Position numbers and translations under genes: made by a program. The notes beneath the pieces are model-generated. The model ran no database searches and had not been told where the DNA came from. It worked only from the letters and a program-made list of their open reading frames with translations. Positions 1 to 20,717 of a stretch of 32,000 nucleotides of DNA are shown here, piece after piece. The stretch is from Candidatus Saccharimonadota bacterium (GTDB taxonomy: Bacteria > Patescibacteriota > Microgenomatia > UBA1406 > GWC2-37-13). Position 1 is the first letter of the stretch. Each line of letters begins with the position of its first letter. The DNA is taken from contig CP066689.1 of the NCBI GenBank assembly GCA_016432445.1, positions 990,001-1,022,000 on the forward strand. Reading direction: 5' to 3'.

Positions 1-615
1 CGAAATAAATATGGATTTGTATTTAGCCAAAATGGTTATTATGAAGTCGCAAGTATCGGTAATGTAAGAGAAAGATACGGATTACCTATGGCCATCGAAC
101 ATTCAGGCAATCACGCAAAGCTCGTTTTAAAAATATTTAAAGATCAAGATCAATGGAAAATGATTTATTGGAATCCATATAATAGTGATGAATTAACTGG
201 CGATCTTAATCGCGCGCCAATAAAAATTGAGACAATTGATGGATTAGAAAAAGTAACAGATTCTTCAACAGATGAAGAAGTAAAAGGAATACTAGAAGCT
301 AATAATTTAGCGATTGATCGGGAAATTTTAGGAAAAATCATCAGTGACCCCAATTATAACTACGATCTTACTTTCGCTGATGATCGAAATCTTACTGATT
401 CAGTAAAAGCCGCCAAATCAGGGTATCTACAACCTCATAGTGATGCCCAAAACTGTGTTGTTTTTTGCGTTTTTAATGCTGTCTTAAGAGCCGCAGCTAA
501 ATGGCCTGAAGGAAAGTGTCCACCTGAGTTTGCAGAGTTTCAAAAAACCGGCCGGAAAAAATTTGAAGAAGATTTTGGCATCACCATAGCTACTAGAGAA
601 CAACTCACTTCATAA
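1..615 (+). CDS. Partial CDS (5' end outside window): C-terminal CE-clan (Ulp1/SENP/adenain-type) cysteine-protease-like domain
   Basis: Frame 1 is open from nt 1 (RNKYGFVFSQNGYYEVASIGNVRERYGLPMAIEHSGNH...), so the ATG at 88 is probably internal. Ordered candidate catalytic residues are His (112-114, GNHAKLVLKI), Asn in the Asp position (172-174, MIYWNPY) and Gln-x7-Cys (LQPHSDAQNCVVF, Cys 454-456). It is clearly paralogous to residues ~330-500 of the 17205..20717 product (ERYxLPMAI; KKFE[EQ]DFGI[TR]I). Confidence 0.6.
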   Translation, partial: RNKYGFVFSQNGYYEVASIGNVRERYGLPMAIEHSGNHAKLVLKIFKDQDQWKMIYWNPYNSDELTGDLNRAPIKIETIDGLEKVTDSSTDEEVKGILEANNLAIDREILGKIISDPNYNYDLTFADDRNLTDSVKAAKSGYLQPHSDAQNCVVFCVFNAVLRAAAKWPEGKCPPEFAEFQKTGRKKFEEDFGITIATREQLTS

Positions 616-666
616 ATCTTGACTCAACCTACAAAGTTGCCTCTGCATTAATACTTATTGTCTCAA

Positions 667-1164
667 TTAGTTAAACTTTTCTTCAGGACTGGGAGGGACT
701 GGGGCAGGAGGCGGAGGCGGAGGTGGAGCCATATCAACTGGATTAATGGAAACCGGCTCCTCTACTTTTTGAGCTGATTGGACTTGCCCTGAGCTTGCTT
801 GCAGTGAGCCTGTCGAATCTGCCGAAGGGGTAACTGGCAAAAGATAGGCCGTGCGGAAGTTTAAAAGAACTGCGGCAATCTCTACGTCAAGATTAGGAAT
901 TTTATCCATGAAAAATTTATTTAGCTCATCATCCGTCGGATTTTTATCCAAAAATTCATCAAGAGCAATCTGGTCTTTTTTAGACAGAAGATTTAAAAGA
1001 TGCAGGTTGATATCTTCATTTATTTGCTTTAAAAGTTCTTCTCTAACCAGATTTTTATTTTGATCGTTGACATGAGGATCTTTTCGATCGCGAATTAAAT
1101 CATCAACATAACTTAAAAGAGCCGCCTGATCCATCGCCGCCTTATCATTTGAATTGTTTTGCAT
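667..1164 (-). CDS. Small helical protein with a C-terminal polyproline tail; resembles DUF5663-type small proteins of Patescibacteria (from memory of the family pattern)
   Basis: 165-aa ORF. The pattern LLNLLSKKDQIALDEFL...DDELNKFFMDKIPNLDVEIAAVLLNFRTAYL matches my recollection of DUF5663. The tail is MAPPPPPPPAPVPPSPEEKFN. A good promoter candidate lies upstream. Confidence 0.6.
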   Translation of the reverse strand: MQNNSNDKAAMDQAALLSYVDDLIRDRKDPHVNDQNKNLVREELLKQINEDINLHLLNLLSKKDQIALDEFLDKNPTDDELNKFFMDKIPNLDVEIAAVLLNFRTAYLLPVTPSADSTGSLQASSGQVQSAQKVEEPVSINPVDMAPPPPPPPAPVPPSPEEKFN

Positions 1165-1204
1165 AAGTGTATATAAACTTGTCCCTCCGAAGGGGAATGA
1201 TTTT

Positions 1205-1233
1205 ATAATAAGTTAAATTTTAAATATTGTCAA
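1205..1233 (-). promoter_or_regulatory. Sigma70-like promoter candidate for the 667..1164 gene
   Basis: On the minus strand: TTGACA (complement of 1228-1233), a 17-nt spacer, then TATTAT (complement of 1205-1210). It lies ~40 nt upstream of the ATG at 1164. Confidence 0.45.
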
Positions 1234-1240
1234 ATTAATT

Positions 1241-4200
1241 TCAAGCTGGCACAGTTTTATCCCCCACTTTATTATCTCTCCAATTTGGATCAGCCGCTTC
1301 ATGTTCAGAATATCCTGGTTTGTTATTATAATTTAGTGATCTAAATTCATTCAGCTTATATTTTAAAGCATTTGTGCCTGGCCGTCTTGGAGCATTTTCA
1401 GGCTTACCTCCACTTTTTTTAATCCTGTTGTTTTCAAATTCTTGCCATCGAGGATCGTCAGCTAGTCTTTTTAAAATTTCTTCTATTTCTACCTGCGAAT
1501 CTCCATAAATTGCCACCCGCGCATCAGTCGGAAGTAATCCATCATATTTACCTAATTCTTTGTTTGTTTCGCCAACCTTATAAGCTCCCATTAACCATTT
1601 GAAGTCTAATCGGTCATGTCTTTTTTTCCTTTCCTCGCCAACCTTCATCAAAAGATCCAGCACTCCTGGAAAATCTTCAGGTTCAATCATAAGGTAACCT
1701 CTAAAAGCATGATCGCTATCACTTTTTATTGGAGATCCATAAACTATCCTTTGCCACTTAAATTTGTTATCCACTCCCGTTGAAAATAAATTTTCTTGTA
1801 TCTCCCCGTTTCTCGCTTTCTCTTCAAATTGATCATAACGGTCTCTTATAACCTCTTTCAAATCACCAGGGTTGTCTTCTATCACTGATTGAGCTTCTTC
1901 TGTTTCGTTTTCTGATGGCTTAGTTTGCGGTAAAGGGGCTTTTTGTTCTCTTAATGTTTTTAAAAGCCCAGCTACATCAACGCTGTGGGACAAGAACTCA
2001 ATCCAGCGGATTTGATAGCCAGTCAATTTCCCAGCATTCAAACTCTCTTGCAAACTTTTGATTCTTTCCGACCACATTGTCTTTAATCCTTCATTGTTTA
2101 CTGTTAGTACCTGCTTCCCTGGCTCAAGCGAATTATAAGATAATAAAACATTATTAGCTTCATGATTCTTAAATGATTCAACATCATTTATTTTAAAGAG
2201 AAGTAATGATGATGGTTCCATTTCCGGCACATCATCTCCTTGCGCCTTTAACCACTCGCCCAATAGAGCTGGATTATTTTTATGAACTTGCAAAACCACA
2301 TCAGCTAGGTGTTTATAAAGCAAGGCTTGTTTAGCTGCAGTTTCAGCTGAAGCGGCTGATACAGCCAATAGTCCTGAATCATTTTTAGTTACGGCCTCAC
2401 CATTTATAAATCTTTGATCATTTTTGCCTCTTTCTGGAGTATCAGTCAAATCCCAAGCCCACGGCACAACCTTATCATTAGTCTTCCATTCTAGTTTTTC
2501 CTGACCCTCTTCAGTCTTCTTTTCAACTATAAAAAAAGGCTGTTTAGACTCAAGAGCTTTTATTTGCTCACCAGCTAAATTAAATCTGTCCGGAACATTT
2601 TCAATATAATATCCATTTTCTTTATTAACCGGTCCTGTGATTCTTTCAAAAATTGCCTGCAGCTGCAGCTCTTCGGAACTCTTAATTTCCGGCTTTTCTT
2701 CCTTTTTCTCTTTCAGACTTGATTCCAACTCTTGCAACTCGTTTTCTATTTCTTCAAGTTTTTTTTCTTCTTCTTTAGTTCGGTTAGGTTTCTTTCTTAA
2801 TTTTTCAGCTGCTTCCTGCAGATCTTTCATTTTTTTCTCCTGGTCGGAAGGACCTGGTTTAGGAGGATTAGGTTTTCCTGTTTGTCCTGGCCGGCCAGTC
2901 TGATCTGAAGGTGTACTTGTTTCCGGAGGTACCTCACCGACTCCAACACTTCTTTCAATATTTTGTCTGGCAGGGAAAGGAACAAAGAACATATCATCAA
3001 AATTTAGCTGATCCAATCCAAAGATTGGAGGACGAAGATTAACAATAGGTGTAGTTACTGTCACATTATCTTTTATAGAATCATTAAGATCAATTATTGA
3101 AAATCCTCCTGGTCCCTCAATACTGACTCCTCCTGCGCCTCTTATTGTGGCAAAAGCCTGTAAAGTCGGATAACCATCCCAAGTAGTTATACTGCCATCA
3201 GGATTGTGGATTTGACCTCCATTTGCTACTAAGCGGCCCGCTTCAATAAACCCCATCTTGCCATCAGCCCCTATATTAAATACATCTTGTCTACTATTAA
3301 GTTCAGTCGCAATATTTCCATCAGACAGACTGGAAAAAGCCTTTTTATTTATCAGCATATTACCGATTTCGCTCATTGATACAGATTGTCCATTTGGCAA
3401 AGCAACCATATGAGTATGATCATTAAGATCAATTGTTACCTTACCATCAATTACTCCATCGGCGCCATCAGGTATCCAAAATGGCTTACTCGCAAGCCCC
3501 GGAACGCTAATAGCCATACCTGCTTGACCATCTTTAATAACCTGCCCAACATCTATTGGATTAGGATTCAAACCTGTTTGGGTTGCTGTCCCCATCTTAC
3601 TCATATCTAATATCAACGTATCTCCTTCTTTAAAGGTATAAAGTCTTAACTCATTGCCTTGTGATTCTGGCTGGTCATAAGAATACCATTCGCGGTGATC
3701 AATTTTTGTTCCCATTTTTTCCCACTCAGCGGCGGCAGCCGGACCATTTATCACTTCTCCACCTCCAGTTTTAGAAAGATCGATTTTTAAAGCCGCATTC
3801 ATTGAATCAGCTCCGGTTATTTTGCCAGCTGCATCAAAGTGAGTGTTGTCTATGAGAATTTTTCCCTTACCCGGGCCATTGGCCACAATCAAATCCCAGT
3901 TGCCTTGAGTATCTTTCGTCCAAGCAGTACCTTCTGGTATTTGCGTATGGATTGTTTTTCCGCTTGCCAAAGTAATATCACTGTCAACTAATTTATTATT
4001 ATCCGCCAAAATTACTTCTTCTCTTGTTTCTGTAACCGGAGTTCCAGGAGATGAAGCAAAATCTTTTAAAGGCGAAGCCGGATCATTTAATCCAATTGTC
4101 GCTCCTGTTTTTTCATTAACTAAAGCAATATTAGGAACTCCATTATTATCAACTTTGGTAAAATGATAATCTGTCAGATCGTAGACATTGCCCGTCTTAG

Positions 4201-7200
4201 TATCAACCAAGTAATCGCCTCCACCTGGCAACTGTTCGTGTCTTACTCCAGCTCCTAGATTGATATCGACGCCATCTATAGTCTCGCGATGGAGCGGTAA
4301 TTCATCAATCGGCCAGTGTGGTACTTCAACAAAGCCTCTCACCTCTAATACTCCTTTTTGCAAAGGTGTCAAATCAGAGACAGCATGCCCGCCTAGATTG
4401 CGGATCGGTACATGTCCCCCCAGCACATCTCCCCAGTTTTTAGTGTACTGCTGAAAACCCTCTTGCAATAAATGCTGCCCTTCGGCTATAACTGGCACAG
4501 CCGCTAATGAAGCCCCCCCTCCCATAATCGCTGTTTTGGCAACCGTTTTTCCAAATCCCCGCCAATGTAATCTATTTGATATGCGTGATGCTTCACGTAG
4601 TGATCTACCATCATCAACGGTAATACGAAATTTTGGAAGGTCAGTCATAACACTATTAATATCAGCCTCTGACATATTCAATCCATTTCTCAGCCATCCT
4701 CTGATATTTTTCTCATCGTTACCCATTCTCAGTTGAGCTTCAATTACCGCAACTGACCTGTCAAAGACACCTAATCTCTGCTGTGCTCGAGGACGATACT
4801 GAATGTCTCCCCAGGTATCACCGGCCAGAAGGGTTTGAGATAATTTACTTCGACCATTCAAAACAGCGCTTTCTAAACGGCGTTGTTGTTCAACTAATTT
4901 TCCTTCCTCAAAACCAACAAAATTTTGAGTCATGTAGCCTAATTCGCGCGTATTAGATAGTTGAGTTAAGCGCATTCTGGCGCGAATCTCAGCGACCCGG
5001 GCAAAAAGTTGTTGCTGTTCTTCCTGACTTAATTGCTGTTTTTTAAGAAGTCCATTATCACCCTCCAAACCTTGCAGTAATTCTTCTGCCGATTTCATCC
5101 CCACCAATGCCCGAGACAATTCCAATCTAATGCGGGCGTCATTCGGAGTTATCCGACCTTCGGCCATTTCTTTTGATAACTGACTTAATTCCCTAGTTAA
5201 TCTTCCTCCAACGCCAAATTTTCCTACTCTAAATCCTGATTCTTTAAAACCGGCCATGAAGCTTACTCCAACCACACCACCGGCACTACGAACTAACGTA
5301 CTTGTTCCAAACATGGCTCCTGAAGCCACCCATCCAAGAGCATAAGCTCCTCCATACGTTCCAATATCTTTAACTGCAGCTAGTGCTCCAGCAAAACCTC
5401 CCCGTCCATCATACCATCGGTTTTCTCTGTTAACCAATCTTCGAGCCAGTCTTTCCACTAAAAATCCCGATTCTACTCCGCCTCTAACATTTCCAAATTC
5501 TCCTCTTCCATAAAGAATATTCAATTTGAGTTCTTCCCATTTGGTTTTGCCGCTTTCCCCTTTTTCAGTTTGATATTGGTTCCAGTTATTTTTTACAGCT
5601 TCGGCAATGTCTAAAATATTTCCACCTGCTCCAGGAGCATTTATTTCGTTTCTTAAATTAGCCGGAACCAAATTTCTAAAATCAGCAGATAAAAAATAGT
5701 TATCTACTTCAGCGACCAATTGTTCATCGGTTAAAGTACCAGCTGAATAACGGGCAATCATATCTTTTATTCTTCTATTTACCTCTATACTCGCTTCAGA
5801 GGGAAGTTGATAGCGAGACTCAGTTCTTGGGTCTAAAATTCTGTTGGCTTCAGTTAATGTTAGTCCACTTAAATTGGCATATCGCCTTCCTAATTCAGTC
5901 TGTTCTTTTAATATTCCTTTAGTATCCAATCCAATCTGATCTTTCCATTGATCTTTATTAATACTTCTTAACCATTTTTTAGCAAAAACTTGTTCAGAAT
6001 TTTGACCAATACCAAATAAACCATTTAAGGTTGAATCCCAAGCTTTCCATAAACCCCTTTGCAAAAATCCTTGACGACCCCTCATTGATCTTCCTTCAAC
6101 TAAAGCCTTGTCCATAATATCGTTTGATACGTCAACAGGGATAGCTCTGGAGCCCATTTTATCTTTAAGGATGCTATCGAAATCAGCGGAAAAACGGGTA
6201 TGCTGCATCTCAAAAACTGTCCTCAAAATTGAATTTTGCCAAATAGCTTTTATTGGGTGTCTTAACCCCCACAAGATACCTCCAACTAAAGGTCTGTTCG
6301 GAGGCACTCCTATACGACGAATATCCTCTGCCATATAGTGCTTACCTCCTCTAAGCGCAGTATAAGTAGACTGATTTTGCAAAGCCACAAGCGCCAAATT
6401 CATCTCAGTTTTTAGTCCTTCTCCAGGTTTAATAGGCGCCGGAGGTATCGGCTTTGGTTCTGGATTTGGTTTTTCTCCGTCTCCATCACCTGGAGCTGGA
6501 TTAATATCTTCAGGACCTTTTTCTTTCTTTTTCTTTTCATCTTCATCATCTTGTTCAGTCTTTTTCTTCTTTTTCTTTTCATCATCGTCTTCATCGTCCT
6601 GTTCGGTTTTTTTCTTTTTCTTTTTTTCGTCCTCATCTTCATCATCTTGTTCAGTCTTCTTCTTCTTTTTCTTTTCATCATCGTCTTCAATCACTTCCTC
6701 AAGTGAGCTTGGACCCTGTCTTCTTGCTTTAAAGTAAATTTTTTCTTGACTGCCACCGCCTTGACTTTGAGACTCGGATGTATAAGATATACGCCTTTGC
6801 ATAAGATCAGCGCCTTTTAAAGCAAAATCAAGAATATTCAATTCTTTATCTTTCAGTAAATTCTTCATTTCCTCAAGTCTAACTGTTTTCAGTTTCTTTC
6901 TTAAATTTTTTTCCTCTTCATCTGTTTTAATTTCGCCTTTTGCTTTACGATCTTTAATCTCTTTATCAATTCTTTTATCACTCCATCCTTCTCTGAAACC
7001 GGTCGTCTGAACTCCTTTATACTGTTCCACCAACCCTCCAACACCTTTTTGTCTTAATGTTTCTCTTACTTCATTTAGCTTTCCATACATTTGAGTTAAA
7101 ACTTGATCTTTGGCTGACTGCGTCGAAGGATCTGGATTTACGTATTTTGGTTGATCAAGAGTTCTTATTGCCTCAATCATCATTGTGTAAAAATGAGATC

Positions 7201-8111: not shown

Positions 8112-11100
8112 ATGACAGAAGCAATTAATCCCTCCCAGGAAAATAAAACTCCGTCTCTAGAAAATACTGTCAATCGGATCGTCTCTCCCCTTTCAGCATC
8201 AACCGAAGGAGGATTACGTCTTACACCGTTAAATAAAGAGCTAACTATTGATCAAGTTAAAAAAGCCACAGCTTTTAAAGTTGGAGATAAAGAAACTAAT
8301 GTCCCTGACTATTTAAAAGAAAATTTGCAAAGAATATTAGGACTTCGGCCTAATACACCAATCAGTAGTCAAGATCAGCTAAAAATAGTTGAACATCTTC
8401 TTGAAGAAATCGCCAAAAACCCGATTGCAGTTGAAAAGGATATCAAATCAAAGCTTCCGGATATAGGCTATAAAATTAATATCCCTGAGATAATTGCTTC
8501 ACTTCAAGTTGTTGGAGTTGAGGCTGCACAACAAGAATATCTTTCAACTCAATCTACGTTTACTACTAAAGAGGTGTCTGCCGGTTGGAAAACAACTGAC
8601 AACACATTTGGAAAAGGCAGCCGGAGAAAACTTTATACCGAAATGAGCGGTTTTGGAGACGAGGTTGTTTTGGGAGGCGAGAGCATGAAAGGAATAACTA
8701 AAGTTGGAGAAAAGGTTGTTATAGAGCCTACAGTTGAAATGGATTTACGTCTGGCTCAAGTTTTATTTAATACTGCCTTACCTCCAGAATATTCAGTCAA
8801 GGTTGCCCAACTTCAACAACAAGTTGCAGCAGAAAAAGACCCTCAGCTTAAAGATCAAAAAGCTCATGAACTAACACTACTCCGGCAAAAGCTTTATAAA
8901 TCAGTATTGGTCGCTTTCAATACGCAAACGGAAAAAGCTGGCGAGATTAAAGCTGAAAACAACGAAAAAGATGAAATTAACAGCATTGCTGACCAAATAA
9001 AAAAAAGAATGACAGAGGTCAAAAAAGGCGGTTTAAGTCTTCAACACATGGATATCCAAGAAGCCAATAGAGCTAGTATTTCTGAGACGGCAAATTATTT
9101 GGGTGTTTCTACTGAAGGACAAAACTTAATAGATAAAGGATGGGAAAATATTTTGATGAGTGTCCATGCCGGTGAAAAAATGAATGTTGCCGTACACAGA
9201 TTTTTGCAAGATCTTGCTTTTGAAAATGTTTCTGCTGATAACAAAAATATTTTTGAAAAAATATTAGCTAACCGTTTAAGGACGGCCATGAGTATAAGCG
9301 GTATTGAAAATTATTACAAAGAATATAATGTTGGCATTAAGCCGGAAAATATCAGCCTTTCTCTCTTTTTATCAATGGGAGTAAAAGGAACGGAACTCCT
9401 TTACAGAAGAACCCAGGGTGAAGAAATTATAGTAAAAACTCCAGAACCAGTAAAACCAGAACTTCCTGAATGGCTTAATCCAAAGATCAAACTTTTAAAA
9501 ACTGAACAACCAGAACAGATGGCTGATATCTTAAAGAAGCTTAAGGAAAAAAGCAAAGACGATGAGTCAGGTATTGATGAAGCTACTGCTGTAGCCAAAC
9601 CTGAGATTGAAGAAGCCATCCCAATCGTTCAGACAGCGAGCTCTGAAGCTGACTCAAATAAGTTTAACTATCGTACCCTAGACTTAACTTTTGAACGTCA
9701 TTTGCCATCTAATATACCAGAAACAGAAAAATCATCCGTTCATGAGATAGGCAGAAACATAGTTAAAGCAATTGTAACTGAGACTGAACTTGGTAACTTA
9801 ACAGAAAACTATAGAAACGTCATTCTTAATGCCGCTGCCCTAAATTCAGCAAACTTACTTACTCCCCTGATTCCTGGTGATGAAAGAGGTAAAAGACTAG
9901 TAACTTCCAAGTCTCAAGCAAATAAAGCTTTAGCCGAAAAAGTTCTTCAAGCTTACACAGAGGCTGAACCAGAAAGGATCGCCCATGAGGGACGTAAATT
10001 AAGTATTGAAGATTTTGTTGAAATAAAAAGAACTTACGATTCTTTAAACTACACTCCACCGACTATTGAATCTCTTTTAGAAGGGCCTTTAAAGGGTGGA
10101 GCTATTCCTCAGCAACTACTCCGAGGACTAGTATTGCAAAGAGAATTTAATCGACGGTTTTTGGATAATTCAATTTCCCTACTTTCTCTCCCCCATGAAG
10201 ATAGAAATTTTGAGAGTCTCAATCTTATCGCTCAAATGACGGCTTTGCAAATTTTTAAAGAGATAGATTTGAAAACTTATCATTTAACATCACACGGCCC
10301 AGTTCCTTTAACGCCAAATAATACTGATTTATTTTTAACTTGGGATAGAGTAAAAAATACCCCAGCCATCGAAGTAGTGAGATTTTACAACCGTCCCCGC
10401 GAACCCATTACTGAAGCCTCCTCCTCAGCCGGCCCGACTATTGCAGTAGCTGATCAAACAGAAGGTGAAACTACGGGTGAGGAAGCAGTAACATATATTC
10501 CAGATGAAACTGAAGAACCTTATTTTGACGATCAACATGCTGTAAGAAGAGAAACAAATAGACAAAGACGGGCAGAAAGAGAAGGAAAAAATAAAAGAGA
10601 ACGCCAAAAAATAAGACGACCAAGAAGAGGTCCGGAAGAAGAGGTCTCTCCCGTAAATCCTCCTGTAGTTGAAGCCACTGAGGAAGCTTCTGCGGCGGTA
10701 TCCGCACCATCAACCGAACGTAAGCTTCCTGATTGGCTTTTTATGAAAGAGCCTGAATCTTCAGCTGAAACTAATGCCACAGTTACAACGGCTGAAAAAA
10801 GAGAACTACCAAGCTGGCTCACGGATGAAGAGCTAATTGCTAAAGATCGAAAAATTGCAGAAGCTCAAGCGGCAGTAGCAACTCCAACCGAAGCCGCTGA
10901 AGATATATTTGCCAAGCTAAGACGGGAATTAGATGAAACTGATAAAAAAGTTGCTTCCCCTGACGATGGGGAACTCCCGGCCTTCTTGAGAAACCGCGCT
11001 CAACCATCTCCTGAAGAACACAAAGAAACAAGCGCGCCAGCAGAAGCAGAAGCCGCTGTAACTATACCAAGCAATGAAATTAAAGCTAACGAAACAAAAC

Positions 11101-12352: not shown

Positions 12353-13561
12353 ATGGAAAATTCTTCATCAACTTTATCTAGTACTGATAAAGGAGAAGTT
12401 CGTCGAGTCTTATCAATAGCAGAAAGGCTAAAAAATAATCCACCAAAAACTAAAGGGGAAAATCATTTTTCAGGTAGGTTTCGGCCGATTTATTCAGCCA
12501 AAGAAGAAAAAGAAAGAAATGCGGTGGTTGACCAGCCTAATAAAAGGCTTTTATTGAAGGCTATTGGCGCGGGCGCTATTCTTGCAGTTAGTGGAGGTTT
12601 AGCATTAAAAGCACTCGGTTCCGATAATACCCCCTCCGTAAGGGCCGAACCAAACCCATCAGCCATACCTTCACCCGCAGCAGAAACTACTGCTATAGCC
12701 GCAACTGAGAAACCTGAAACGACACCGGAGCCGCCTAAAGAAAGAGGCGGTATCCTTACCCCGGAAGAACTTGTTGACTATAGTCAGGTCATAGAATTCG
12801 TTGGCAAACTCCGGAATAGCCATGATTCGGTTTTATCCGAATCGCTTTTTACCAAAGAACTGGCAGGATTTTCTACTGAAAAACGTCAAGAAGTATTGAA
12901 AGCCATAGCCAAAGCTCATGCGCAAGCTCTTGTTGAATATTATGGAGATAATGAAGCTATTATTGGCCTTGATCCGGGTCATGGCTCATCTGATGTAGGT
13001 TCATCCGGAACAACCCCAGAAGGGAAAACTATCGCTGAAAAAGAACTCACCTGGGAAGTAAGTCAAATGTTAGCTGAAGAACTTAAAACTTTAAGCCATA
13101 ACCGTTATTTCATTGTTATTTTACGGCCTCACGATCCTCAAGACCGGGATTTAGATGGCGATGGAACAATTGCGCCGGTTGAAAGAATCCAAAAACGCAA
13201 GGCTTTACTTATGAAAATGGAACAAAAACTGCGCGATAAACCGGAAGATATAGGCAAAAATATTCTTTATTTATCAATGCATTTTAACGGATCATCCGAT
13301 CCAAATCAGGGCGGAGCCGAAATGTATTGGCCAAACAGCTTTGCCGTCAAAGATGATAATCATCGCCAAGCCAGTGAAGCACTAGCTAAAAGTATTCAAG
13401 ATAAAACCGTGACCGCAATTAGAAAAACTGGCTATAATACATTTGACCGCAAGGCAAAAGAAGATCCTGACAAAAATATGCCTACCGGTAACATAAGTCA
13501 AGTGGGGCCTTACCTAGTTCTGGGATCACCTCGTCTTGATAATCTTCTTCAAAAAGCCTAA
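12353..13561 (+). CDS. Membrane-anchored N-acetylmuramoyl-L-alanine amidase (Amidase_3 family)
   Basis: Amidase_3 signature: IGLDPGHGSSDVG (Zn His), EKELTWEV (Glu), YLSMHFNGS (Zn His), GAEMYW. It has an N-terminal cytoplasmic peptide, one TM segment (LLLKAIGAGAILAVSGGLALKAL) and a Pro/Thr/Ala linker. It starts 5 nt after the upstream gene. Confidence 0.85.
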   Translation: MENSSSTLSSTDKGEVRRVLSIAERLKNNPPKTKGENHFSGRFRPIYSAKEEKERNAVVDQPNKRLLLKAIGAGAILAVSGGLALKALGSDNTPSVRAEPNPSAIPSPAAETTAIAATEKPETTPEPPKERGGILTPEELVDYSQVIEFVGKLRNSHDSVLSESLFTKELAGFSTEKRQEVLKAIAKAHAQALVEYYGDNEAIIGLDPGHGSSDVGSSGTTPEGKTIAEKELTWEVSQMLAEELKTLSHNRYFIVILRPHDPQDRDLDGDGTIAPVERIQKRKALLMKMEQKLRDKPEDIGKNILYLSMHFNGSSDPNQGGAEMYWPNSFAVKDDNHRQASEALAKSIQDKTVTAIRKTGYNTFDRKAKEDPDKNMPTGNISQVGPYLVLGSPRLDNLLQKA

Positions 13562-13570: not shown

Positions 13571-14968
13571 ATGGAATACTCTGAGCGAGTCTTATCTATT
13601 GCTGAAAGATTAAAACAACCTCCGACTCCGCCAACTACGGCCGAAAGATTGAAACAAAGACAACAAGAAGGTCAAAGATCTTTACCTCAACTAAACCGTA
13701 TCTATTCAAAGGAAGAGTTAAAGCGGATGAATTACACTCCAATTCATCCAAAAACAGGAATAAAGATTGCTTTAGCTGGAATGACACTGCTGACGATTGG
13801 CTTAGCGGCCGAGGCTTCCCTTAATCCAACCGTCCCCACCGTAAGCGCTAATCCTGAACCAACACGACCCGCTCTAACCGCGACAGCCACCGCCTATAAA
13901 CCTCCTTTAGATATTATCTATCCCCCATCTTCCCCCACGGCTATCGCTGAAACTGCTGCCGCAGTCAATACACCTGAAATCAAAAAAAAGAAAGATCTTC
14001 TCAGTGAAGCCGCTCATTCATTTTATGCGAAAGCTCAAGCAAAACGAAATGAACGCGCAAAAAAAGATCCTGATTATCTTACCCGGATCAATCCTGAGTT
14101 AAATAAAAACCGGATTAATTTTCTGTCTCTGGGTATAGGTAAAGAAGGAGCTTTAACTGACTCCATTCAAGTTATATCTTATGATCTTACTTCAGGAAAT
14201 TTATCAATGATTTCCTTGCCGCGTGACCTTCAATCACCTGAAGTTCTTAAAGCTTATGGAGGAGACGAACGCAATTCCCGTATCAATCAGGCTTTAACCA
14301 AAGGCGGTATAGATCTTTCCCAGCTGGCGGTTGAAAATGCAACCGGCTTGTCTATGGATTTTGTGATGGTTAACCGCTTTGAAATCCTTACGAAAATTAT
14401 TGATAAAATTGGCGGGATAGAAGTCGATGTAGACAAGGATATTGATGATAATAACTATCCCGCTCTTGAAGGCGACGGCTATGACCCTTTCCATATTACC
14501 AAAGGCCATCACCTTTTAAATGGTTATGACGCTTTAAGATATTCCCGATCCCGTTACAGCACCAGTGATTATGACCGGTCTAAAAGACAACAAAAAGTGC
14601 TGGAAGCCCTTATTAAAAAATATGCCGAAGAAATGAAAAAAAATCCCTTAAAAGCAGCTGGCCTCATAAAAGATACTCTTGGCATCATTAATGAAGAAGT
14701 AAATAGCGGAAAACTGAAGGCTGATTTTGATATCGGCGATATTTCCGGACCCATTATTTCACTTATTCCCTCGCTTATTGGAGGCGCTCGTTTTGAAATG
14801 CCGCCAACCGCCCACTTTACGGTTGATACTTCAAACTTTGTCGTTAGCGCCTCTCTCCCGGGCATAGCCATAACCAAGATTAAGGGAGGCAATGCTCACT
14901 CTGGCAACCCACGGCAAGATTATTGGGGTCCATTACGTCCGGCTGTTAAAGAATTTCTTACACGCTAA
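13571..14968 (+). CDS. LytR-CpsA-Psr (LCP) family cell-envelope polymer transferase, membrane-anchored
   Basis: LCP core pattern: INFLSLGIGKEGALTDSIQVISYDLTSGNLSMISLPRDL...INQA...GG...VNRF...IGGIEVDV...LNGYDALRYSRSRY..SDYDRSKRQQKVL. It has an N-terminal peptide and one TM segment (IKIALAGMTLLTIGLAA). It starts 9 nt after the amidase stop. Confidence 0.85.
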   Translation: MEYSERVLSIAERLKQPPTPPTTAERLKQRQQEGQRSLPQLNRIYSKEELKRMNYTPIHPKTGIKIALAGMTLLTIGLAAEASLNPTVPTVSANPEPTRPALTATATAYKPPLDIIYPPSSPTAIAETAAAVNTPEIKKKKDLLSEAAHSFYAKAQAKRNERAKKDPDYLTRINPELNKNRINFLSLGIGKEGALTDSIQVISYDLTSGNLSMISLPRDLQSPEVLKAYGGDERNSRINQALTKGGIDLSQLAVENATGLSMDFVMVNRFEILTKIIDKIGGIEVDVDKDIDDNNYPALEGDGYDPFHITKGHHLLNGYDALRYSRSRYSTSDYDRSKRQQKVLEALIKKYAEEMKKNPLKAAGLIKDTLGIINEEVNSGKLKADFDIGDISGPIISLIPSLIGGARFEMPPTAHFTVDTSNFVVSASLPGIAITKIKGGNAHSGNPRQDYWGPLRPAVKEFLTR

Positions 14969-14969: not shown

Positions 14970-15950
14970 CTACCCTTGCTGTCCACCACTATCTTTGGAG
15001 CTTTTATAAGCCATCCACATCATCATAAGAAGACCTGCTAAACCTATACCGCCGCCCTTTAGTATTCTTTTATTCCAATCTGGAATTTCAATTCTTAAGT
15101 CATTGTTAAGTTGTTTTGCCTGTTTATTATCCAAAATGCCCTTTTTTTTAAGTCCCTCTATTAAAGCTTTCCTGCTTTTCTCATCAGCTACGGCACTGTC
15201 TATAATATCATTAAGCAGTTTTAAAGGTCTATTTCTCCTATCCGCTGTTATCTCTCCGGCTATTTCTTCAACAAACTGGACTAACCGATCTGGAATATCT
15301 TGACCGTCTTTTTTAATTTCTTTTCTTTGAGTTTCAAGATTCTTTAGATTCTCATCCTCTTTGTTTTTTTTAGCAGTAAGTTCAAACAATCTTTTTTCTG
15401 CTACAGCTTTTTTTTCTGGAGTCTGATCAGGAAGATCACGCGCTTTTTCAACAAGCTGAATATTCTCATTAATCTGTATCAAACGTTCTCTTACTGAATG
15501 GATCTCAACATCGTATCCCAAAGCCTTATTTAGAGGATCAGAATCATTCTTCAGCTCATTAATTTGCGCGTCGGCAGCTTTTACTTTTTCCTCAAGCAGT
15601 TTATACCTTTGCTCTTGTTCCTTAGTTACGTTTTTCTTTCCGCTAATTTCTGCCATAGTGGCTTCTGCCGCCGCTCTAGTAATTACCGCCTCAAGCGGGG
15701 TAAATTTTTTTCCAGCAGCTTCTGCCTGATTTGTTTCAGCAGGAATTTCTGTTTGATCAATCTCCGTGAGACTTCCTCTTGCTTTATCTGGATCTTTAGT
15801 TCCTTCCTCGCATGCTTTTATCCATCTTTTTGTTACCGGATCTCTTTCTCGTTTCTTGGCATTTTCGCTCATCTTAGCTCTTGTTTCAGGTGATAACTCG
15901 CGCTTTGGTTTTGCTTCAGTTGTAAGCGGTCTTCCTGGTGTTTCTGCCAT
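14970..15950 (-). CDS. Tail-anchored coiled-coil protein with a basic N-terminus (NUMOD3-like LSPETRAKMSENAKKR motif)
   Basis: 326-aa ORF with a long heptad-like K/E-rich centre and a single C-terminal hydrophobic segment (GGGIGLAGLLMMMWMAY) followed by KSSKDSGGQQG. Its start lies 2 nt after the stop of the upstream 126-aa gene. Confidence 0.7.
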   Translation of the reverse strand: MAETPGRPLTTEAKPKRELSPETRAKMSENAKKRERDPVTKRWIKACEEGTKDPDKARGSLTEIDQTEIPAETNQAEAAGKKFTPLEAVITRAAAEATMAEISGKKNVTKEQEQRYKLLEEKVKAADAQINELKNDSDPLNKALGYDVEIHSVRERLIQINENIQLVEKARDLPDQTPEKKAVAEKRLFELTAKKNKEDENLKNLETQRKEIKKDGQDIPDRLVQFVEEIAGEITADRRNRPLKLLNDIIDSAVADEKSRKALIEGLKKKGILDNKQAKQLNNDLRIEIPDWNKRILKGGGIGLAGLLMMMWMAYKSSKDSGGQQG

Positions 15951-15952: not shown

Positions 15953-16333
15953 TTAGTTAGTGATTTTGAACATTAATACTTTTTTAACCATATCCTGAGC
16001 TTCATTATACTGGCCATTTTTAATCAAATGAGAGACCATCTCAATGGCTTTCTGCGAATATTTTTCTTCATACTCTTTCATCAGTTTATAAACCACTGGA
16101 GAAAGCTCTGAATATTGATCATCTAGCTTAACTGCATTTTGATACATCTCCTGAAGAGTCATCTCAGGTTTAACCAGCTCAAGGGTAGTATGGGCGATAG
16201 CTTGTATTCTTTCTTTGGGAGTGTCGCCCTTTTCCGCCAGCTGTTGAATGATTTTTAAAACTTCTACCTCAACAAATTTCCTAAAATCATCCTTATTTCC
16301 TGAAGTATTAACCTGTGCCTGAGAATCAGCCAT
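15953..16333 (-). CDS. Small (126 aa) helical protein of unknown function, co-oriented and apparently co-transcribed with 14970..15950
   Basis: The ORF has typical coding composition and is tightly spaced with the downstream gene. I recognise no family motif. Confidence 0.55.
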   Translation of the reverse strand: MADSQAQVNTSGNKDDFRKFVEVEVLKIIQQLAEKGDTPKERIQAIAHTTLELVKPEMTLQEMYQNAVKLDDQYSELSPVVYKLMKEYEEKYSQKAIEMVSHLIKNGQYNEAQDMVKKVLMFKITN

Positions 16334-16449: not shown

Positions 16450-16457
16450 AATATAAG

Positions 16458-16466: not shown

Positions 16467-16472
16467 TTTCTT

Positions 16473-17201
16473 ATGTCTTGTCCCAACTGCAGCACCAGTT
16501 TAACTCCAGTAGACTTTCACCATTTGGAAATTCTCCATTGTAAAAACTGCGGATGTACGTTTTTTGAGGATTATGCAATCAATAGAATTGATGTGAGTTT
16601 TGCCAATAAACTAGCTTTTGATAAACTCAGCGATTATATCTCAGGTAGCGAAAAATTATGCCCGCGTGATCAGTCTCCCCTATCTCAGATGTCTACTGAG
16701 TCTATACCTCAAGATGTTCAGCTTCTCCAGTGCGGCAAATGTAAAGGAATATTTGCTTATCCTGATGATCTTATGAGGTTTAAACTCGCCCAGAATGCCA
16801 AGATTAATTATTTTAAAGCCTGGAATATACCACCTGCATTAAGATCTTTGCTTGTTTTAAGCCTCATTGCTACTGTATCAATGGCTGTTTTCGGCAAATC
16901 AGTACTCTTTAATAACAAACCTACCAAAGCTGATGATATCGTAAAAAGCATTAACACATCCGTATCTGGAAGATTATTGTTTGTTTCCTTTAGAACTCAA
17001 GTTCCTTACTCTTCCCGAATAATTTTTCTTGATAAAACCTCAAACTCAAAAAATGAGAAAGTAATAAGCGCCGCTCAAACAAAGCTTCATTATTTAGTTG
17101 TCAGCGATATTGACATTTCTCACGACATTTTTTATCAAATCATTGTCACTGATAAATCAGGTAAAGAGGTTAAAACGAGCGAACTCAAACTCCGTAGATA
17201 A
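16473..17201 (+). CDS. Membrane protein with two N-terminal zinc-ribbon motifs (zf-TFIIB-like), one TM segment and a C-terminal extracytoplasmic domain
   Basis: First ribbon: CPNC-x17-CKNCGCTFF. Second, degenerate ribbon: LCPRD...CGKCKGIFAYPDDL. TM segment: LRSLLVLSLIATVSMAVFG. A beta-rich tail follows. Confidence 0.7.
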   Translation: MSCPNCSTSLTPVDFHHLEILHCKNCGCTFFEDYAINRIDVSFANKLAFDKLSDYISGSEKLCPRDQSPLSQMSTESIPQDVQLLQCGKCKGIFAYPDDLMRFKLAQNAKINYFKAWNIPPALRSLLVLSLIATVSMAVFGKSVLFNNKPTKADDIVKSINTSVSGRLLFVSFRTQVPYSSRIIFLDKTSNSKNEKVISAAQTKLHYLVVSDIDISHDIFYQIIVTDKSGKEVKTSELKLRR

Positions 17202-17204
17202 AGG

Positions 17205-20200
17205 CTATTTTGTTTCCTCAAACAACAAACCGGGCATGTGTTTTCTTCTTAAAGGTTTTGATAAAGTGTCAACATTCTGGAAAGTTTCAGTACGACTAGG
17301 TGTAAAACGGCGCATCTTTTTATATAAGGGTTCTATTCCATCTTTAAACGTATTTATACTAACAAACTGGCCTGTTGCTGGATCTTTTTCAAAATGTTTT
17401 CCGTAAAATTGAGTTCCCATTATCTCCGCACCCATTTTAGGAAGATCATTGGAGTCGTAACTAACTATCGAAGGCATCTCAACTAAACCTGTAGATTCAT
17501 CAAGCGGGATATTAAAATGGACCATTAAGTTAGACCTTACTTTTGCCTTTTCCTGCGGATTAGTAATCCAATACTCAGGATGTTTTTCCTTAGCTCTTTC
17601 CACTGCAGCCGCAATCTTTTTCATTGCTTTTGGATCTTTACCACGATTGTAAATTATTATATTATTGTTGTTGTAATGACTTTCTGGAGACTCTTGTAAC
17701 GCTCCATAGTATAAAGCTAAAGTCGTATAGGCCCAAACATCTTCGTTTTTTAACTCCTCAAATAAAGACAAATATGCTTCTGGAGCGTGGCGATTATGGA
17801 CATAAAAATAAACTCGGGTTATCGGCCGCTCTTTTTTTGTTTCTTCAGTTAATCCGCCAATTTGTAATTTTTCAACCTCCGTTGCATCACGACAAACAAA
17901 GGGAAGTTTTTTGTCAGCTCCATATTCTTGTGGCATTTCTTTTCTTAGTTTTTCAACTCTGTCTAAAGCTTCTTTGTTAAGCCTAACTACTTCATCTTTC
18001 TCTATTGGCGACGGATCGCCTGTTTCTGCTTTTAATCTGTTTATCTCAGCCATTTGGTATTCAATCATTTGGGCATACGATATATTATTTAAAGCTCTTC
18101 GATATTTTTCATAGCCAACCCTTTGGATCTCCTCAAAGCCCCGACCGGCGATAACATTTTCCATATCAACTTCATCTTTAAACTCAGGAAAAATAGATTC
18201 GGCAATGGCAATGGTTTTCTCCCAATACTCTTTCATTTTCACCTCATCATCCAAACCATAGCCTCGTCCAAATTGGCGCAAGTTCTTTTTTTGTTCTTCA
18301 GTAATAGTCTTTGATCTTAGGAATTTATTAAGTATAGGAATTACTTCTTTTTGTTTAGCCAATGGTAAACCATCAAACTTTTGACGAAGTTCCTTTAAAC
18401 GATCTTCATAAAAACCCAATGTTTGGTCATTAATTGATAATGTATAACCGCCATCTCTTAAATATTGGGTAATGGCCAGTGAATCATCTATTTTCATTAA
18501 TTTTTCAACATTGGGCTCATTTGTTACCTTTTGATAAAGAGGATAACCATTCTTATACGGGTAAAGAGGGTCATCAGATTTTTTAGGTTTAATTAAATTC
18601 TTAAACCCGATTATATCTTGATTAAGATATTGTGTAGGCACCCAATGTATAAACCCTCCTAAGGCTAACTGCTTTAAAATATTCCCATGAGATTCTACAG
18701 CCCAAATATTACCAGGTACAGAATCACTGTCTTGAGTCCTTCCAAAAGGCGTTGGGGCTTTAATAATTGTAAAAGCGTTACCATTTTCAATCTCTTGAGG
18801 AGTAAATTTAGTAGCATCTTCAGCGTACATAACAACAGTCCTTTCTCTCCCGCCCCAATCAAATTTAACTACTCTTTTTCCCCCTTTACCTAAAATTCCT
18901 TCTGTTTCATCTGAAATTATTTTTCCACCAATTTTTTGTATTGTTTCATCAGGAAGATAATCATTCCTTAAAGAACCATCTTCATTTATATACACATAAT
19001 CAGTAAAGACAAACTTATCAGCATTAGTAAATGCTAGAGAATAGGCGATATCGCGTCCTGAGCCGGGATAGTAAACCGGTAAACCATTTTTTATAACCTC
19101 AGAATTAGCCGCAATATCTCTGATTTGAGAAGCATTTTCCCATAATTCTTTCGTCGTAAACCATGAAGGATTATCCTTTAGTTTTTCCCAATCAGCATCT
19201 GGTGTTTCTTTATATTCTCTTCGTGGTTTGATTCTGATTCCAAAGTCCTGCTCGAATTTTTTCAATCCCTCTATCTCTTCAGGTTTCAAATCAGATCTAA
19301 AACCATTACAAAGTAGCCCCATATACAATGAATACCCTACGCAGTTAATATTATCGTGCGGCTTTTGAAGTACTGGAAAAGCGTTATCTGGCAAATCTTG
19401 GATTAAATCATAACTTTCGCCTGAACAAATCTTTTCAATTAATTTTGGATTAGTCTTTATTTCCCACTCCTTTCTATCAATTTTAATATTTAGGTTTAGG
19501 CCACGATATACGCCATCCGCTTGTTTATGCGCATGGACAAAAGGATTATGAGCTTCATCAAATTCATCAGCTATTAGCTCCGTTTTACCCTTATATGGGT
19601 CATAAGTTATCAATCTCCATTTGCCGTTAACATCCTTCGTCGGTGCCTTTAATAGAAAAGTCTGATGCCACATTCGTTGTCCCTGACCATTCAATATAGC
19701 CATAGGAAGATTGTATCTTTCAGCTGCATTAAATACTGCGTTTTGATCCATTAATCCCCGCGGATTAGGCACTAACCATCTATTAATAAAAGCTCCAACA
19801 TCAGTTATTTCATCACTATTTCTTAATTGTTGGATAAAGGCTTCTGCTCCGCGCTTAATACTTTCCGGATCATCAGCGGAGATCTCAATAATCTCCTTTT
19901 TTGTTTCATCTTCTTTTGTTTTCGTTCGATTTTCTTTTTGCTGAGTTTTTGATGTCGTAATCTCTCCCGTTCTACCATTCCATACGAAAGTTAGTAATCT
20001 TTTTTCTTCATCTGTTAATCTATTGATTTTAGATTTTTCTTGGGTTTCAACTTGAGTCTTTTCATTAACTTGGGTGATAAATGCTTGGCGTAAATCAGTT
20101 TTTTGAACTTTAACTTCAGCATCAATAAGCTGAGTTAAAACTTCAGATGACGTACCCCCAAAGATTTTGGCTATCCATTTGATAGCCGGAAGATCTTGTT

Positions 20201-20717
20201 TTAACTTCTCATAATCTATATTTTGCCCATCAGCATAGGCCTGAACCACCTTACTAATAAATGTTTGAACTTGAGACGCTTTATTATCCCCTTGGAAATA
20301 AGTTGAGTATAGATTTTCAGCGTCATTAATTGTAAATTGCTGTGAGTTTATTCCTATCTTCTCAAAAAATTTATCCCATCCAGCATTGTTGAAATACTCT
20401 TTTGAAGTTTGAAAAGCTGAGGTAGTTTGTTCAAGCCATAATTTCTTTTGCGCTTCAAAACCTTGTACATTTTGACCTCTCCAATAATCTTTTCTTTCCC
20501 TAGTTGAAGCAGTAGATAAATATTTGTAAGTGGTTTGTTCTCTTACCACAAGACTAACTGAGAGTGAGTTCTCATCCAAGTCAGGCATATCATGATCTGG
20601 ATTTAGTGCTTGTCCTCCAAGAAGCAGTCTTGACTGTAAACCAATTAACCCTTTTTTAAACTGAAGCCGTTCAGGTATTTTTAATGCATCAGGAGCTGGA
20701 ACAGGATTCTCTGACAT
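17205..20717 (-). CDS. Giant (1170 aa) multidomain protein: central CE-clan cysteine-protease-like domain, a Rossmann-like GxG module, and a C-terminal module shared with the 2236-aa protein
   Basis: Uninterrupted 3.5-kb ORF. Candidate catalytic residues are His351 (MWHQTFLLK), Asp373 (LITYDPY), Gln451 and Cys459 (LQKPHDNINCVGYSLYMG; Cys codon = complement of 19341-19343). The Rossmann-like motif is VYYPGSGRDIAYSLAFTNADKFVFTDY. The C-terminal module begins ITRVYFYVHNRHAPEAY...IIIYNRGKD. Confidence 0.85.
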   Translation of the reverse strand: MSENPVPAPDALKIPERLQFKKGLIGLQSRLLLGGQALNPDHDMPDLDENSLSVSLVVREQTTYKYLSTASTRERKDYWRGQNVQGFEAQKKLWLEQTTSAFQTSKEYFNNAGWDKFFEKIGINSQQFTINDAENLYSTYFQGDNKASQVQTFISKVVQAYADGQNIDYEKLKQDLPAIKWIAKIFGGTSSEVLTQLIDAEVKVQKTDLRQAFITQVNEKTQVETQEKSKINRLTDEEKRLLTFVWNGRTGEITTSKTQQKENRTKTKEDETKKEIIEISADDPESIKRGAEAFIQQLRNSDEITDVGAFINRWLVPNPRGLMDQNAVFNAAERYNLPMAILNGQGQRMWHQTFLLKAPTKDVNGKWRLITYDPYKGKTELIADEFDEAHNPFVHAHKQADGVYRGLNLNIKIDRKEWEIKTNPKLIEKICSGESYDLIQDLPDNAFPVLQKPHDNINCVGYSLYMGLLCNGFRSDLKPEEIEGLKKFEQDFGIRIKPRREYKETPDADWEKLKDNPSWFTTKELWENASQIRDIAANSEVIKNGLPVYYPGSGRDIAYSLAFTNADKFVFTDYVYINEDGSLRNDYLPDETIQKIGGKIISDETEGILGKGGKRVVKFDWGGRERTVVMYAEDATKFTPQEIENGNAFTIIKAPTPFGRTQDSDSVPGNIWAVESHGNILKQLALGGFIHWVPTQYLNQDIIGFKNLIKPKKSDDPLYPYKNGYPLYQKVTNEPNVEKLMKIDDSLAITQYLRDGGYTLSINDQTLGFYEDRLKELRQKFDGLPLAKQKEVIPILNKFLRSKTITEEQKKNLRQFGRGYGLDDEVKMKEYWEKTIAIAESIFPEFKDEVDMENVIAGRGFEEIQRVGYEKYRRALNNISYAQMIEYQMAEINRLKAETGDPSPIEKDEVVRLNKEALDRVEKLRKEMPQEYGADKKLPFVCRDATEVEKLQIGGLTEETKKERPITRVYFYVHNRHAPEAYLSLFEELKNEDVWAYTTLALYYGALQESPESHYNNNNIIIYNRGKDPKAMKKIAAAVERAKEKHPEYWITNPQEKAKVRSNLMVHFNIPLDESTGLVEMPSIVSYDSNDLPKMGAEIMGTQFYGKHFEKDPATGQFVSINTFKDGIEPLYKKMRRFTPSRTETFQNVDTLSKPLRRKHMPGLLFEETK

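Follow-up and report, generated by a model that had tools for sequence, protein, structure and literature searches.

Constant N-terminal domains and exchangeable cargo: a candidate effector island in a Candidatus Roizmanbacteria genome

The locus and its large proteins

The window analysed here comprises 32,000 nt (contig CP066689.1, positions 990,001 to 1,022,000) of a metagenome-assembled genome (MAG) of Candidatus Roizmanbacteria, which belongs to the Microgenomatia within the Candidate Phyla Radiation (CPR). Positions 1-20717 and two upstream genes form an island of large modular proteins. Each of these proteins consists of a constant N-terminal domain (N-domain) and of cargo modules that are swapped between proteins, between three classes of carrier and between genomes. 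All reading frames lie where the original prediction, made from this sequence without database searches, had placed them. Protein A is cut by the window edge: the 3' end of its gene (1-615, plus strand) encodes residues 588-791 of a 791 aa protein whose full gene (L001:4657-7032, numbered along the extended locus of the window) begins outside. The gene of P0004 is located just upstream of the window in the same MAG and abuts A directly. C (1241-7951, minus strand) is a giant of 2236 aa. D (8112-12347, plus strand; 1411 aa) is the first gene of an operon with E and F. J (17205-20717, minus strand; 1170 aa) is a hypothetical protein by annotation; its contig measures 1.1 Mb. Searches of Pfam, NCBIfam, PADLOC, PHROGs and the PDB sequences gave no significant match for A, C, D and J. 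None of A, J, D and P0004 carries a signal peptide or a strong transmembrane segment (TM). Related proteins and loci are designated below by P and L numbers.

The J/A-type N-domain family

J, A and P0004 share an N-terminal domain of ~260 aa. It comprises aa 1-261 in J (19935-20717, minus strand), with a Pro/Glu-rich tail including the hexapeptide PVPAPD in front, and aa 8-265 in A (outside the window). The domain matches nothing in Pfam, NCBIfam or PDB. AlphaFold 2 (AF2) models were computed for J 1-505 and J 505-850. In the former, which is based on 11 sequences and has a mean per-residue confidence (pLDDT) of 76, the N-domain is all-helical. Foldseek searches with this model yielded nothing significant in PDB or BFVD. 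An ABC1 kinase-like match in the N-domain of P0074 (24.4 bits) was discarded, as no other member showed it and the AF2 model is all-helical.

In a first homologue search, relatives of J matched only its first ~260 residues and then diverged. Because word-indexed searches badly under-reported the family (4, 1 and 2 matches), an exhaustive search was needed. With phmmer, J was compared to 1.84 billion cluster representatives, and 353 representative clusters were found at E<=1e-3. Modules were counted by iterative profile searches on the best 150 of these 353 proteins together with the proteins of the loci. The N-domain is present in 124 of the ~150 proteins; in 123 of these 124, its start falls into the first 50 residues. 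Among the ~150 representatives, 39 architectures can be distinguished, 30 of which begin with the N-domain. J combines the N-domain with a Cys-peptidase-like module, a module designated Jmid and a HopA1-like module, whereas A carries a JAMM-like and a Cys-peptidase-like module and P0004 an HExxH module behind the same N-domain. In L006, the N-domain is fused directly to the C-terminal module of J. The HExxH module was counted 35 times, Jmid 29 times, the C-terminal module of J 21 times, the Cys-peptidase-like module of A and J 19 times, the JAMM-like module 16 times and a module designated GPVNK nine times; the C-terminal module of C was found twice and two more times in the loci. A further 57 unassigned segments yielded at least 11 additional recurrent groups, among them PP2C and a DEAH/HA2 helicase. 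All-against-all comparison with hhalign showed that the modules are mutually unrelated.

The distribution of the family is narrow. A motif scan of 185,579 species genomes revealed four loci only, and a scan of JGI metagenomes 11 loci. Among the viral contigs of IMG/VR, no relative of the N-domain was found.

Besides the J/A type of ~260 aa, two other carriers exist, a C type of ~400 aa and a D type of ~500 aa. According to hhalign, the three N-domains are unrelated to one another. For D, a divergent J-type N-domain had been considered, since D 82-351 and J 4-298 reached z=7.5 when aligned by Smith-Waterman. This score was read as a compositional artefact, because hmmsearch with the J-type family profile found nothing in D and hhalign of D, represented by its own homologues, against the J-type N-domain gave a probability of 0.2%.

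The original prediction had described a set of mosaic proteins in which cargo is shuffled between a common N-terminal tag and a common C-terminal module. The mosaic character, the swapping of cargo behind constant parts and a likeness to polymorphic toxin/effector families, though with none of the trafficking domains known from these, are strongly borne out once homologues are included, and both the neighbourhood and the module exchange recur in other genomes. The specific anatomy is a different one: instead of a shared tag and a shared end, there are three unrelated constant N-domains, each followed by a variable remainder.

Cargo modules

The Cys-peptidase-like module is located at aa 306-505 in J (19203-19802, minus strand) and at nt 16-603 (plus strand) in A. 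That A and J have a protease-like domain in common had been predicted and is well founded: A (aa 6-201 of the part encoded in the window) matches J 315-501 in BLASTP with E=8e-8, and the Smith-Waterman score of 105 compares to a shuffle mean of 32±5 (z=13.4). The residue order His … Asp/Asn/Glu … Gln … Cys is aligned in 6/6 copies, and in a set of 24 copies, 21-22 retain each of His, Gln and Cys. AF2 models the module as an alpha/beta domain in which the conserved Cys opens a helix. This order is that of clan CE (Ulp1-like) peptidases: His, Asp/Glu/Asn, (Gln), Cys. The domain resembles both clan CE (Ulp1/SENP/YopJ) and permuted papain-like peptidases (PPPDE/LRAT) in the order His, Asp/Asn, Gln, Cys, in an 'NC' motif and in the position of Cys at the N-terminus of a helix. 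It differs from both in that it has no Pfam, PDB profile or Foldseek match to solved structures. No match to Pfam C48, C55 or C57 was obtained. The best PDB profile match (E=0.14) was a papain-type staphopain, with the matched segments in reversed order, and Foldseek against PDB returned nothing at E<0.3 with the model of pLDDT 76.

The JAMM-like module of A (aa 286-520) is encoded outside the window. Its motif E…HxH…S-x-x-D (E364, H441, H443, S456, D459) is invariant in 10/10 sequences, with the spacing HxH-x12-S-xx-D. Pfam (JAB/MPN families) and PDB profiles gave no match. Similarly, HExxH is invariant in 18/18 sequences of the HExxH module, for which no PDB profile was matched.

Jmid (J aa 507-849; 18171-19199, minus strand) is composed of a Rossmann-like alpha/beta core and a helical bundle. 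Its motif is LPVYYPGSGxDI…FVFVDY…YAEDA, in which YPGSGxD and FVFVD are conserved. The 29 proteins that contain it include stand-alone proteins and giants. The AF2 model is confident (pLDDT 89.5, predicted TM-score 0.87). Foldseek yielded weak matches to class I methyltransferases (MTases), namely RNMT (probability 0.69), PRMT8 (0.60) and NNMT (0.57), none at E<=1e-3. No Pfam methyltransferase family was matched.

The HopA1-like module (J aa 851-1170; 17208-18167, minus strand) is often stand-alone among the 21 proteins in which it occurs. J itself matches HopA1 (PF17914) with 13.3 bits (E=0.078), below the Pfam gathering threshold of 22.7. This threshold is passed by two relatives of the module, P0018 (22.9 bits) and P0054 (24.6 bits). 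In addition, P0036, another N-domain protein, passes it with 23.9 bits; here, the match lies outside the module as delimited. A PDB profile search with the module of J found no match. In lanthipeptide pathways, members of the HopA1 family such as CaoY serve as phospho-Ser/Thr lyases, and the family includes an effector of a plant-pathogen type III secretion system (PMC9486802). The module of J resembles the HopA1/LanY family in that two relatives and P0036 attain the Pfam score, and differs in that J is sub-threshold and the module is fused to other modules and the N-domain. It is a putative pSer/pThr lyase.

Across the modules, Foldseek (PDB, BFVD) and PDB profile searches gave nothing significant. 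Among the relatives, Pfam matches to PP2C, DEAH helicase, Pkinase and Metallophos were found. Judged by motifs or weak matches, most of the cargo would be enzymes that edit proteins or phospho-signalling. The set encoded in the island would comprise, apart from the putative lyase, a Cys-peptidase-like domain, a JAMM-like isopeptidase, an HExxH zincin and a Rossmann/MTase-like domain. The relatives would add PP2C, a calcineurin-like phosphatase, a Ser/Thr kinase, a domain with a weak GNAT-like match and a DEAH helicase.

The giant C and its neighbour B

C follows the same principle with a carrier of its own. Its N-domain (aa ~12-414; 6710-7918, minus strand) is common to giants with differing remainders: P0016 (44% identity), P0019 and the giants of L011, L012 and L014. 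The remainder of P0016 contains a Ser/Thr kinase and Jmid, that of P0019 Jmid. Between the N-domain and the core, a tandem repeat is located (aa ~421-476; 6522-6689, minus strand), which has a 48-bp period, 3.1 copies and 79% matches. Tandem Repeats Finder reported it in two overlapping rows, 6522-6593 and 6540-6689; the copy number is that of the 48-bp row. The repeat encodes acidic blocks alternating with oligo-lysine blocks, DDEDEKKKKKKTEQ, and could be a charged linker of variable length. The conserved core of the C-type giants (aa ~510-1690; 2882-6424, minus strand) is Gly/Ala-rich with weakly hydrophobic segments, followed by a beta-rich region. Over ~1200 aa, it is 30-38% identical to the giants of L012, L014 and L017 and 29% identical to that of L004. 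In place of the end modules of C, the giants of L004, L012, L014 and L017 carry PP2C, Metallophos or GT9.

Two cargo modules follow the core of C. GPVNK (aa 1736-2015; 1907-2746, minus strand) is found directly behind a J-type N-domain in P0067, P0076, P0089, P0100, P0124, P0141, L008 and L009. The C-terminal module (aa 2041-2236; 1244-1831, minus strand) recurs at 52% identity in P0065, an N-domain protein, and at 40-47% in giants encoded by L014 and L016. This means that two carrier classes use the same cargo. C and J had been thought to end in a similar module. This was not the case: the last 230 aa of both proteins align no better than shuffled controls (z=0.24), and hhalign of the two end modules gave a probability of 0.1%. 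Each end is, separately, a genuine mobile module.

A gene similar to that of B (667-1164, minus strand) always adjoins a C-type giant. B is a small helical, DUF5663-like protein of 165 aa with a Pro-rich C-terminal tail. Its identity to the counterparts in L004, L012, L014 and L017 is 54-73%. B is a candidate chaperone or adaptor of C.

D and the cell-wall enzymes E and F

The N-domain of D (aa 10-515; 8139-9656, plus strand) is shared with P0153 and P0154 (1016 and 1898 aa), and the remainders differ. In acidic, Pro-rich disordered sequence, D contains four copies of the short motif [EK]LP[EDSA][WF]L (ELPxWL) at aa 451, 872, 899 and 955 (9462-9476 and 10725-10991). The motif was not found in the other proteins of the window, in A or in the three related giants scanned.

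E (12353-13561, plus strand) is a membrane-anchored N-acetylmuramoyl-L-alanine amidase (Amidase_3), and F (13571-14968, plus strand) a membrane-anchored LytR-CpsA-Psr (LCP) enzyme (LytR_cpsA_psr). The original prediction had D share short peptides with both. The alignments speak against it: D and E score no better than shuffled sequences (z=-1), and D and F reach z=2.6 in low-complexity P/T/A/E linkers only. A resemblance between ERLSLRQRLA in D and RVLSIAERLK in E and F was rejected as a post hoc attraction, since a fair scan of D gave P=0.08. The link between D and the wall enzymes is positional, i.e. it consists of the operon and synteny and has no basis in sequence. E and F themselves share the N-terminal cytoplasmic peptide RVLSIAERLK and the TM (z=8.6) within 12353-12600 and 13571-13810. 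In L011, an analogous pair (23196-23450 and 25674-25930) shares a duplicated PDFSRVNPDTL…AAFRE peptide instead. Such shared cytoplasmic peptides in consecutive wall enzymes suggest a locus-specific docking peptide. L011 also encodes a fused LCP-amidase beside its giants, which is 46-49% identical to F and E. In L014 and L017, an N-domain protein takes the slot of D, and in L012, another giant does.

Proline- and glutamate-rich N-terminal tails

The predicted common N-terminal element of C and J, P[LV]PAPD, does exist as a hexapeptide in both proteins. PLPAPD occupies residues 10-15 in the Pro-rich tail of C (7907-7924, minus strand) and PVPAPD residues 5-10 of J. It is not a constant tag: the N-termini of C and J align with z=1.95 only, and the motif is missing from the closest relatives of J. 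In addition, hhalign of C against the J-type N-domain family gave a probability of 0.5%, so that C is no member. The first 22 residues contain PAP[DE] in seven of 112 family representatives, compared to 0.7 expected from shuffled tails, and P0029 has exactly the PLPAPD of C. In residues 2-21 of these 112 representatives, Pro is enriched 3.1-fold and Glu 1.7-fold. PxPAPD is a recurrent element of a Pro/Glu-rich style of tail and defines no family of C and J. A similar tail may be present on G (gene 14970-15950): its N-terminus, MAETPGRPLTTEAKPKRELSPETRAK, is like the 'M-A/S-E…P…SPE' Pro/Glu-rich tails of the N-domain family, although G lacks the N-domain.

Neighbourhood in related genomes

At least five related genomes (L004, L012/L021, L014, L017, L020) repeat the order N-domain genes, DUF5663-like gene, C-type giant, and variants of it are found in L011 and L016. 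Two settings can be distinguished. In the first, which is that of the window (L001) and of L005 and L017, cohesin/dockerin genes and an HTH_17 gene are followed by N-domain genes, a B-like gene and the giant. On three short contigs (L010, L018, L028), too, an HTH_17 gene was found 5' of the N-domain gene. In the second setting, the gene set lies beside genes of a type IV secretion system (T4SS). This applies to four related genomes (L011, L012/L021, L014, L016), in two of which the set is demonstrably located between a VirB2-like pilin array and PrgI. The order in L021/L012 is Trans_reg_C, VirB2-like pilin array, 226-aa gene, N-domain gene, Fic, B-like gene, giant, the giant P0016, PrgI, TraC-like, VirB4-like, CHAP, dnaN and dnaA. 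L014 comprises pilins, three N-domain genes in tandem, B-like gene, giant, another N-domain gene and PrgI; the three tandem genes are directly adjacent, with no small genes between them. In L016, TrbL and pilins precede an N-domain gene, DUF5663, giant, DUF5663 and giant, and in L011, pilins precede two N-domain genes, giants and the fused LCP-amidase. Native T4SSs of Microgenomatia are characterized by pilin arrays and a chromosomal position next to dnaA (PMC12102498, PMC12857230). The dnaA neighbourhood of L012/L021 and the pilin arrays of the second setting agree with this description.

Several genes around these loci deserve mention. The HTH_17/MerR-type (excisionase-like) gene encodes 71-73 aa (L001:2202-2417, L005:3804-4025, L017:7944-8165) and is 85% identical between genomes. 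In six loci, this candidate local regulator lies immediately 5' of the first N-domain gene. Upstream of it, cohesin/dockerin proteins with Thr/Pro linkers are encoded (L001:646-2058, L005:596-1285, L017:4251-7854), which hints at a cellulosome-like surface scaffold beside the island. Among the VirB2-like pilin genes, genes for four-helix bundles of the 23S_rRNA_IVP type were found (L014:979-3566, L016:3849-9172). The pilin array is flanked by the Trans_reg_C regulator and the conserved 226-aa gene. The Fic-domain protein of L012 (L012:840-1889), encoded between the N-domain gene and the B-like gene, is another effector-type enzyme; it contains none of the three N-domains. Near some loci, a transposase, an integrase-like gene and genes of toxin-antitoxin systems (PIN, AbiEii) were found. 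Two records titled 'uncultured Gammaproteobacteria bacterium' contain N-domain genes, a DUF5663-like gene and a giant (L007) or HTH_17 and an N-domain gene (L010). Because of this gene content, the label is probably wrong.

Small interleaved genes and the remainder of the window

The small proteins interleaved with the large ones have the predicted character. In addition to the DUF5663-like B, they include G (14970-15950, minus strand), a coiled coil with a C-terminal TM anchor, H (15953-16333, minus strand), a small helical protein, and the membrane protein I (16473-17201, plus strand), in which two zinc ribbons are combined with a single TM. G and H have no homologue in the syntenic loci. 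J and I are convergent, and J is co-directional with the housekeeping gene K. From 20784 onward, the window encodes ordinary metabolism: GalT/HIT, Pth, glycosyltransferases, GH1 and trehalose-6-P synthase. The G+C content is 0.35-0.44 in the island, with peaks in C and E/F, compared to 0.31-0.37 in the housekeeping half of the window, and the split is at ~21000. Two short tandem repeats with a 14-bp period are located in intergenic regions at 21708-21746 (2.9 copies, between K and L) and 26740-26795 (4.2 copies, between P and Q) and could be regulatory sites. N (23680-25167, 495 aa) has no Pfam match. Its gene is flanked by GT4 and GT2 glycosyltransferase genes and overlaps both with its ends; it is probably an uncharacterised member of this glycan operon.

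Function of the island

What could such proteins be good for? We consider it an even chance that positions 1-20717 and the two upstream genes are a hypervariable island from which a Roizmanbacteria cell produces modular, multi-enzyme, effector-like proteins that are exported and directed at its host. The constant N-domain, perhaps together with the Pro/Glu-rich tail, would be the part recognised for export, and the variable cargo would act in or on the host cell of the episymbiont. Since the gene set adjoins T4SS genes in four related genomes, the T4SS of Patescibacteria would be the most likely route. B might assist C on this way, and the D-E-F operon, with its amidase and LCP enzyme, would remodel the wall locally for the apparatus. 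A more specific proposal is tentative and clearly the less probable of the two: the J/A-, C- and D-type N-domains may be a recognition or translocation module of the Patescibacteria T4SS, and the island its first identified substrates. In one genetically tractable species of Patescibacteria, this T4SS is essential for epibiotic growth. The systems lack relaxases and have been assigned no substrate; import of DNA or other macromolecules was hypothesized (PMC12857230, PMC12102498).

Effectors of this layout are not without precedent. X-Tfe proteins with XVIPCD in Xanthomonas and Bep proteins with BID in Bartonella likewise join a shared domain to diverse catalytic domains and are encoded at the T4SS locus as well as at satellite loci. 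In both groups, the conserved recognition domain is C-terminal. In the island, by contrast, the conserved part is N-terminal, and no relationship in sequence or fold to those domains was found; in addition, the T4SS in question is the monoderm, conjugation-derived one of Patescibacteria (PMC12857230, PMC12102498). A constant trafficking part with shuffled cargo is a known principle. For the domains found here, for a set of three carriers and for a link to the Patescibacteria T4SS, no description was found in the libraries and literature searched.

Several observations weigh against export to a host. A position in or next to a T4SS was found in four relatives and not in the window, L017 or L005: neither the window nor the 6.4 kb upstream contain a T4SS gene, and the context, like that of L005 and L017, consists of cohesin/dockerin and HTH_17 genes. 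In known T4SS substrates, the signals are usually C-terminal rather than N-terminal. None of the established translocation signals or domains that bind the coupling protein (C-terminal charged tail, BID, XVIPCD) was detected with Pfam, and what is conserved lies at the N-terminus. The peptidase, JAMM and zincin assignments rely on conserved motifs, with no significant Pfam, PDB-profile or Foldseek match. A DEAH helicase is an odd cargo for an effector that is directed at a host. Finally, conservation in the syntenic loci does not extend to D, G, H and I.

Some of these points suit a different explanation, which survives best among the alternatives and is still unlikely: the proteins may be intracellular and self-directed, with the N-domain docking diverse enzymes onto an internal structure of the CPR cell for regulation or quality control. 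A, J, D and P0004 would then need neither the signal peptide nor the strong TM that they lack, a helicase would be at home, and both the lack of a secretion system next to this island and the orientation of J along with the housekeeping gene K would be unsurprising. Against such a role stand the 39 architectures with tandem paralogues and rapid module exchange and the very narrow, patchy distribution. In addition, the related loci are embedded in T4SS loci, and effector-type cargo such as the HopA1-like module is present.

It is improbable that the large proteins are structural or adhesive parts of a T4SS or, as the original prediction had also considered, of an envelope apparatus, with the giants as divergent VirB6/PrgH-like or PrgB-like components and the N-domain proteins as accessories. 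The Gly/Ala-rich hydrophobic segments and the beta-rich region of the giants would fit, as would their position directly beside PrgI/VirB4 and the operon that E and F share with D; the reported scarcity of VirB6 homologues in Microgenomatia suggests that these have diverged extremely (PMC12102498). Yet the hydrophobic segments score low (Kyte-Doolittle ~1.5), and no Pfam T4SS family matches C, D or J. Moreover, neither interchangeable enzymatic ends (kinase, PP2C, Metallophos, GT9, HopA1-like) nor two to four divergent paralogues per locus would be expected of a structural component.

Polyvalent proteins are said to have been described by Iyer and colleagues in 2017 as proteins of phages and conjugative elements that chain unrelated enzymatic domains for delivery into another cell. 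That the island encodes such proteins, transferred together with DNA to disarm a recipient, has a similarly low probability. Like polyvalent proteins and MARTX toxins, its products are long chains of unrelated enzymes (peptidases, helicases, modifying enzymes), including a zincin and a helicase. Six loci have an HTH_17 gene of the excisionase type upstream, PIN, AbiEii, transposase and integrase-like genes are near some loci, and conjugation machinery is the ancestor of the CPR T4SS (PMC12102498). On the other hand, domain scans of the window revealed no relaxase, integrase, capsid or terminase, and the chromosomal neighbours are housekeeping genes. The proteins have no match in PHROGs, no N-domain relative in IMG/VR and no fold match in BFVD, and they differ from polyvalent and MARTX proteins in lacking a mobile-element context, MuF or polyvalent-associated domains, MARTX repeats and the CPD autoprocessing domain. 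The T4SS-linked loci, in turn, are located beside dnaA/dnaN, the reported chromosomal site of native CPR T4SSs (PMC12102498).

Classical polymorphic toxins (LXG, Rhs, CDI, MafB) for competition between bacteria, each neutralised by a cognate immunity protein, share with the island their defining layout of a constant N-terminal part with recombining C-terminal enzymatic modules (here, 30 architectures, with modules also on giants), several paralogues per genome and restriction to a lineage, and small genes such as those of B and H are interleaved. They are hardly a probable explanation, as no conserved small partner or immunity-type reading frame follows the variable ends except B beside the giants (P0004 and A, like the L014 trio, are directly adjacent), the searches revealed no toxin domain of the nuclease, deaminase, NADase, pore-forming or lipase type, and up to four or five enzyme modules stand in series in one protein, drawn by three unrelated carriers from a single cargo pool. 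In agreement with the original prediction, the N-domains are unlike the known trafficking domains: LXG, WXG100, Rhs/YD, PT-HINT, MafB, PAAR and TPS were not detected in A, P0004, C, D and J with Pfam, NCBIfam and PADLOC, and RHS, LXG, WXG, PT-HINT and T6SS markers were also absent at the level of PHROGs.

Implications

Three unrelated carrier domains that draw on one cargo pool are a documented case here. At least eight modules were defined that have no match in Pfam, NCBIfam or PDB, with one borderline Pfam match (HopA1) as exception; one of these new modules, Jmid, has a confident predicted fold. A large part of bacterial diversity belongs to the CPR/Patescibacteria, whose cells live attached to those of a host. 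A mosaic family encoded in T4SS loci provides a concrete candidate set of substrates and a testable candidate recognition domain. If the N-domains are indeed read by the T4SS, this would mean that the CPR T4SS exports proteins, in place of or besides importing DNA, and that fast-evolving isopeptidases, proteases, phospho-lyases, kinases and phosphatases would be injected to reprogramme the host.

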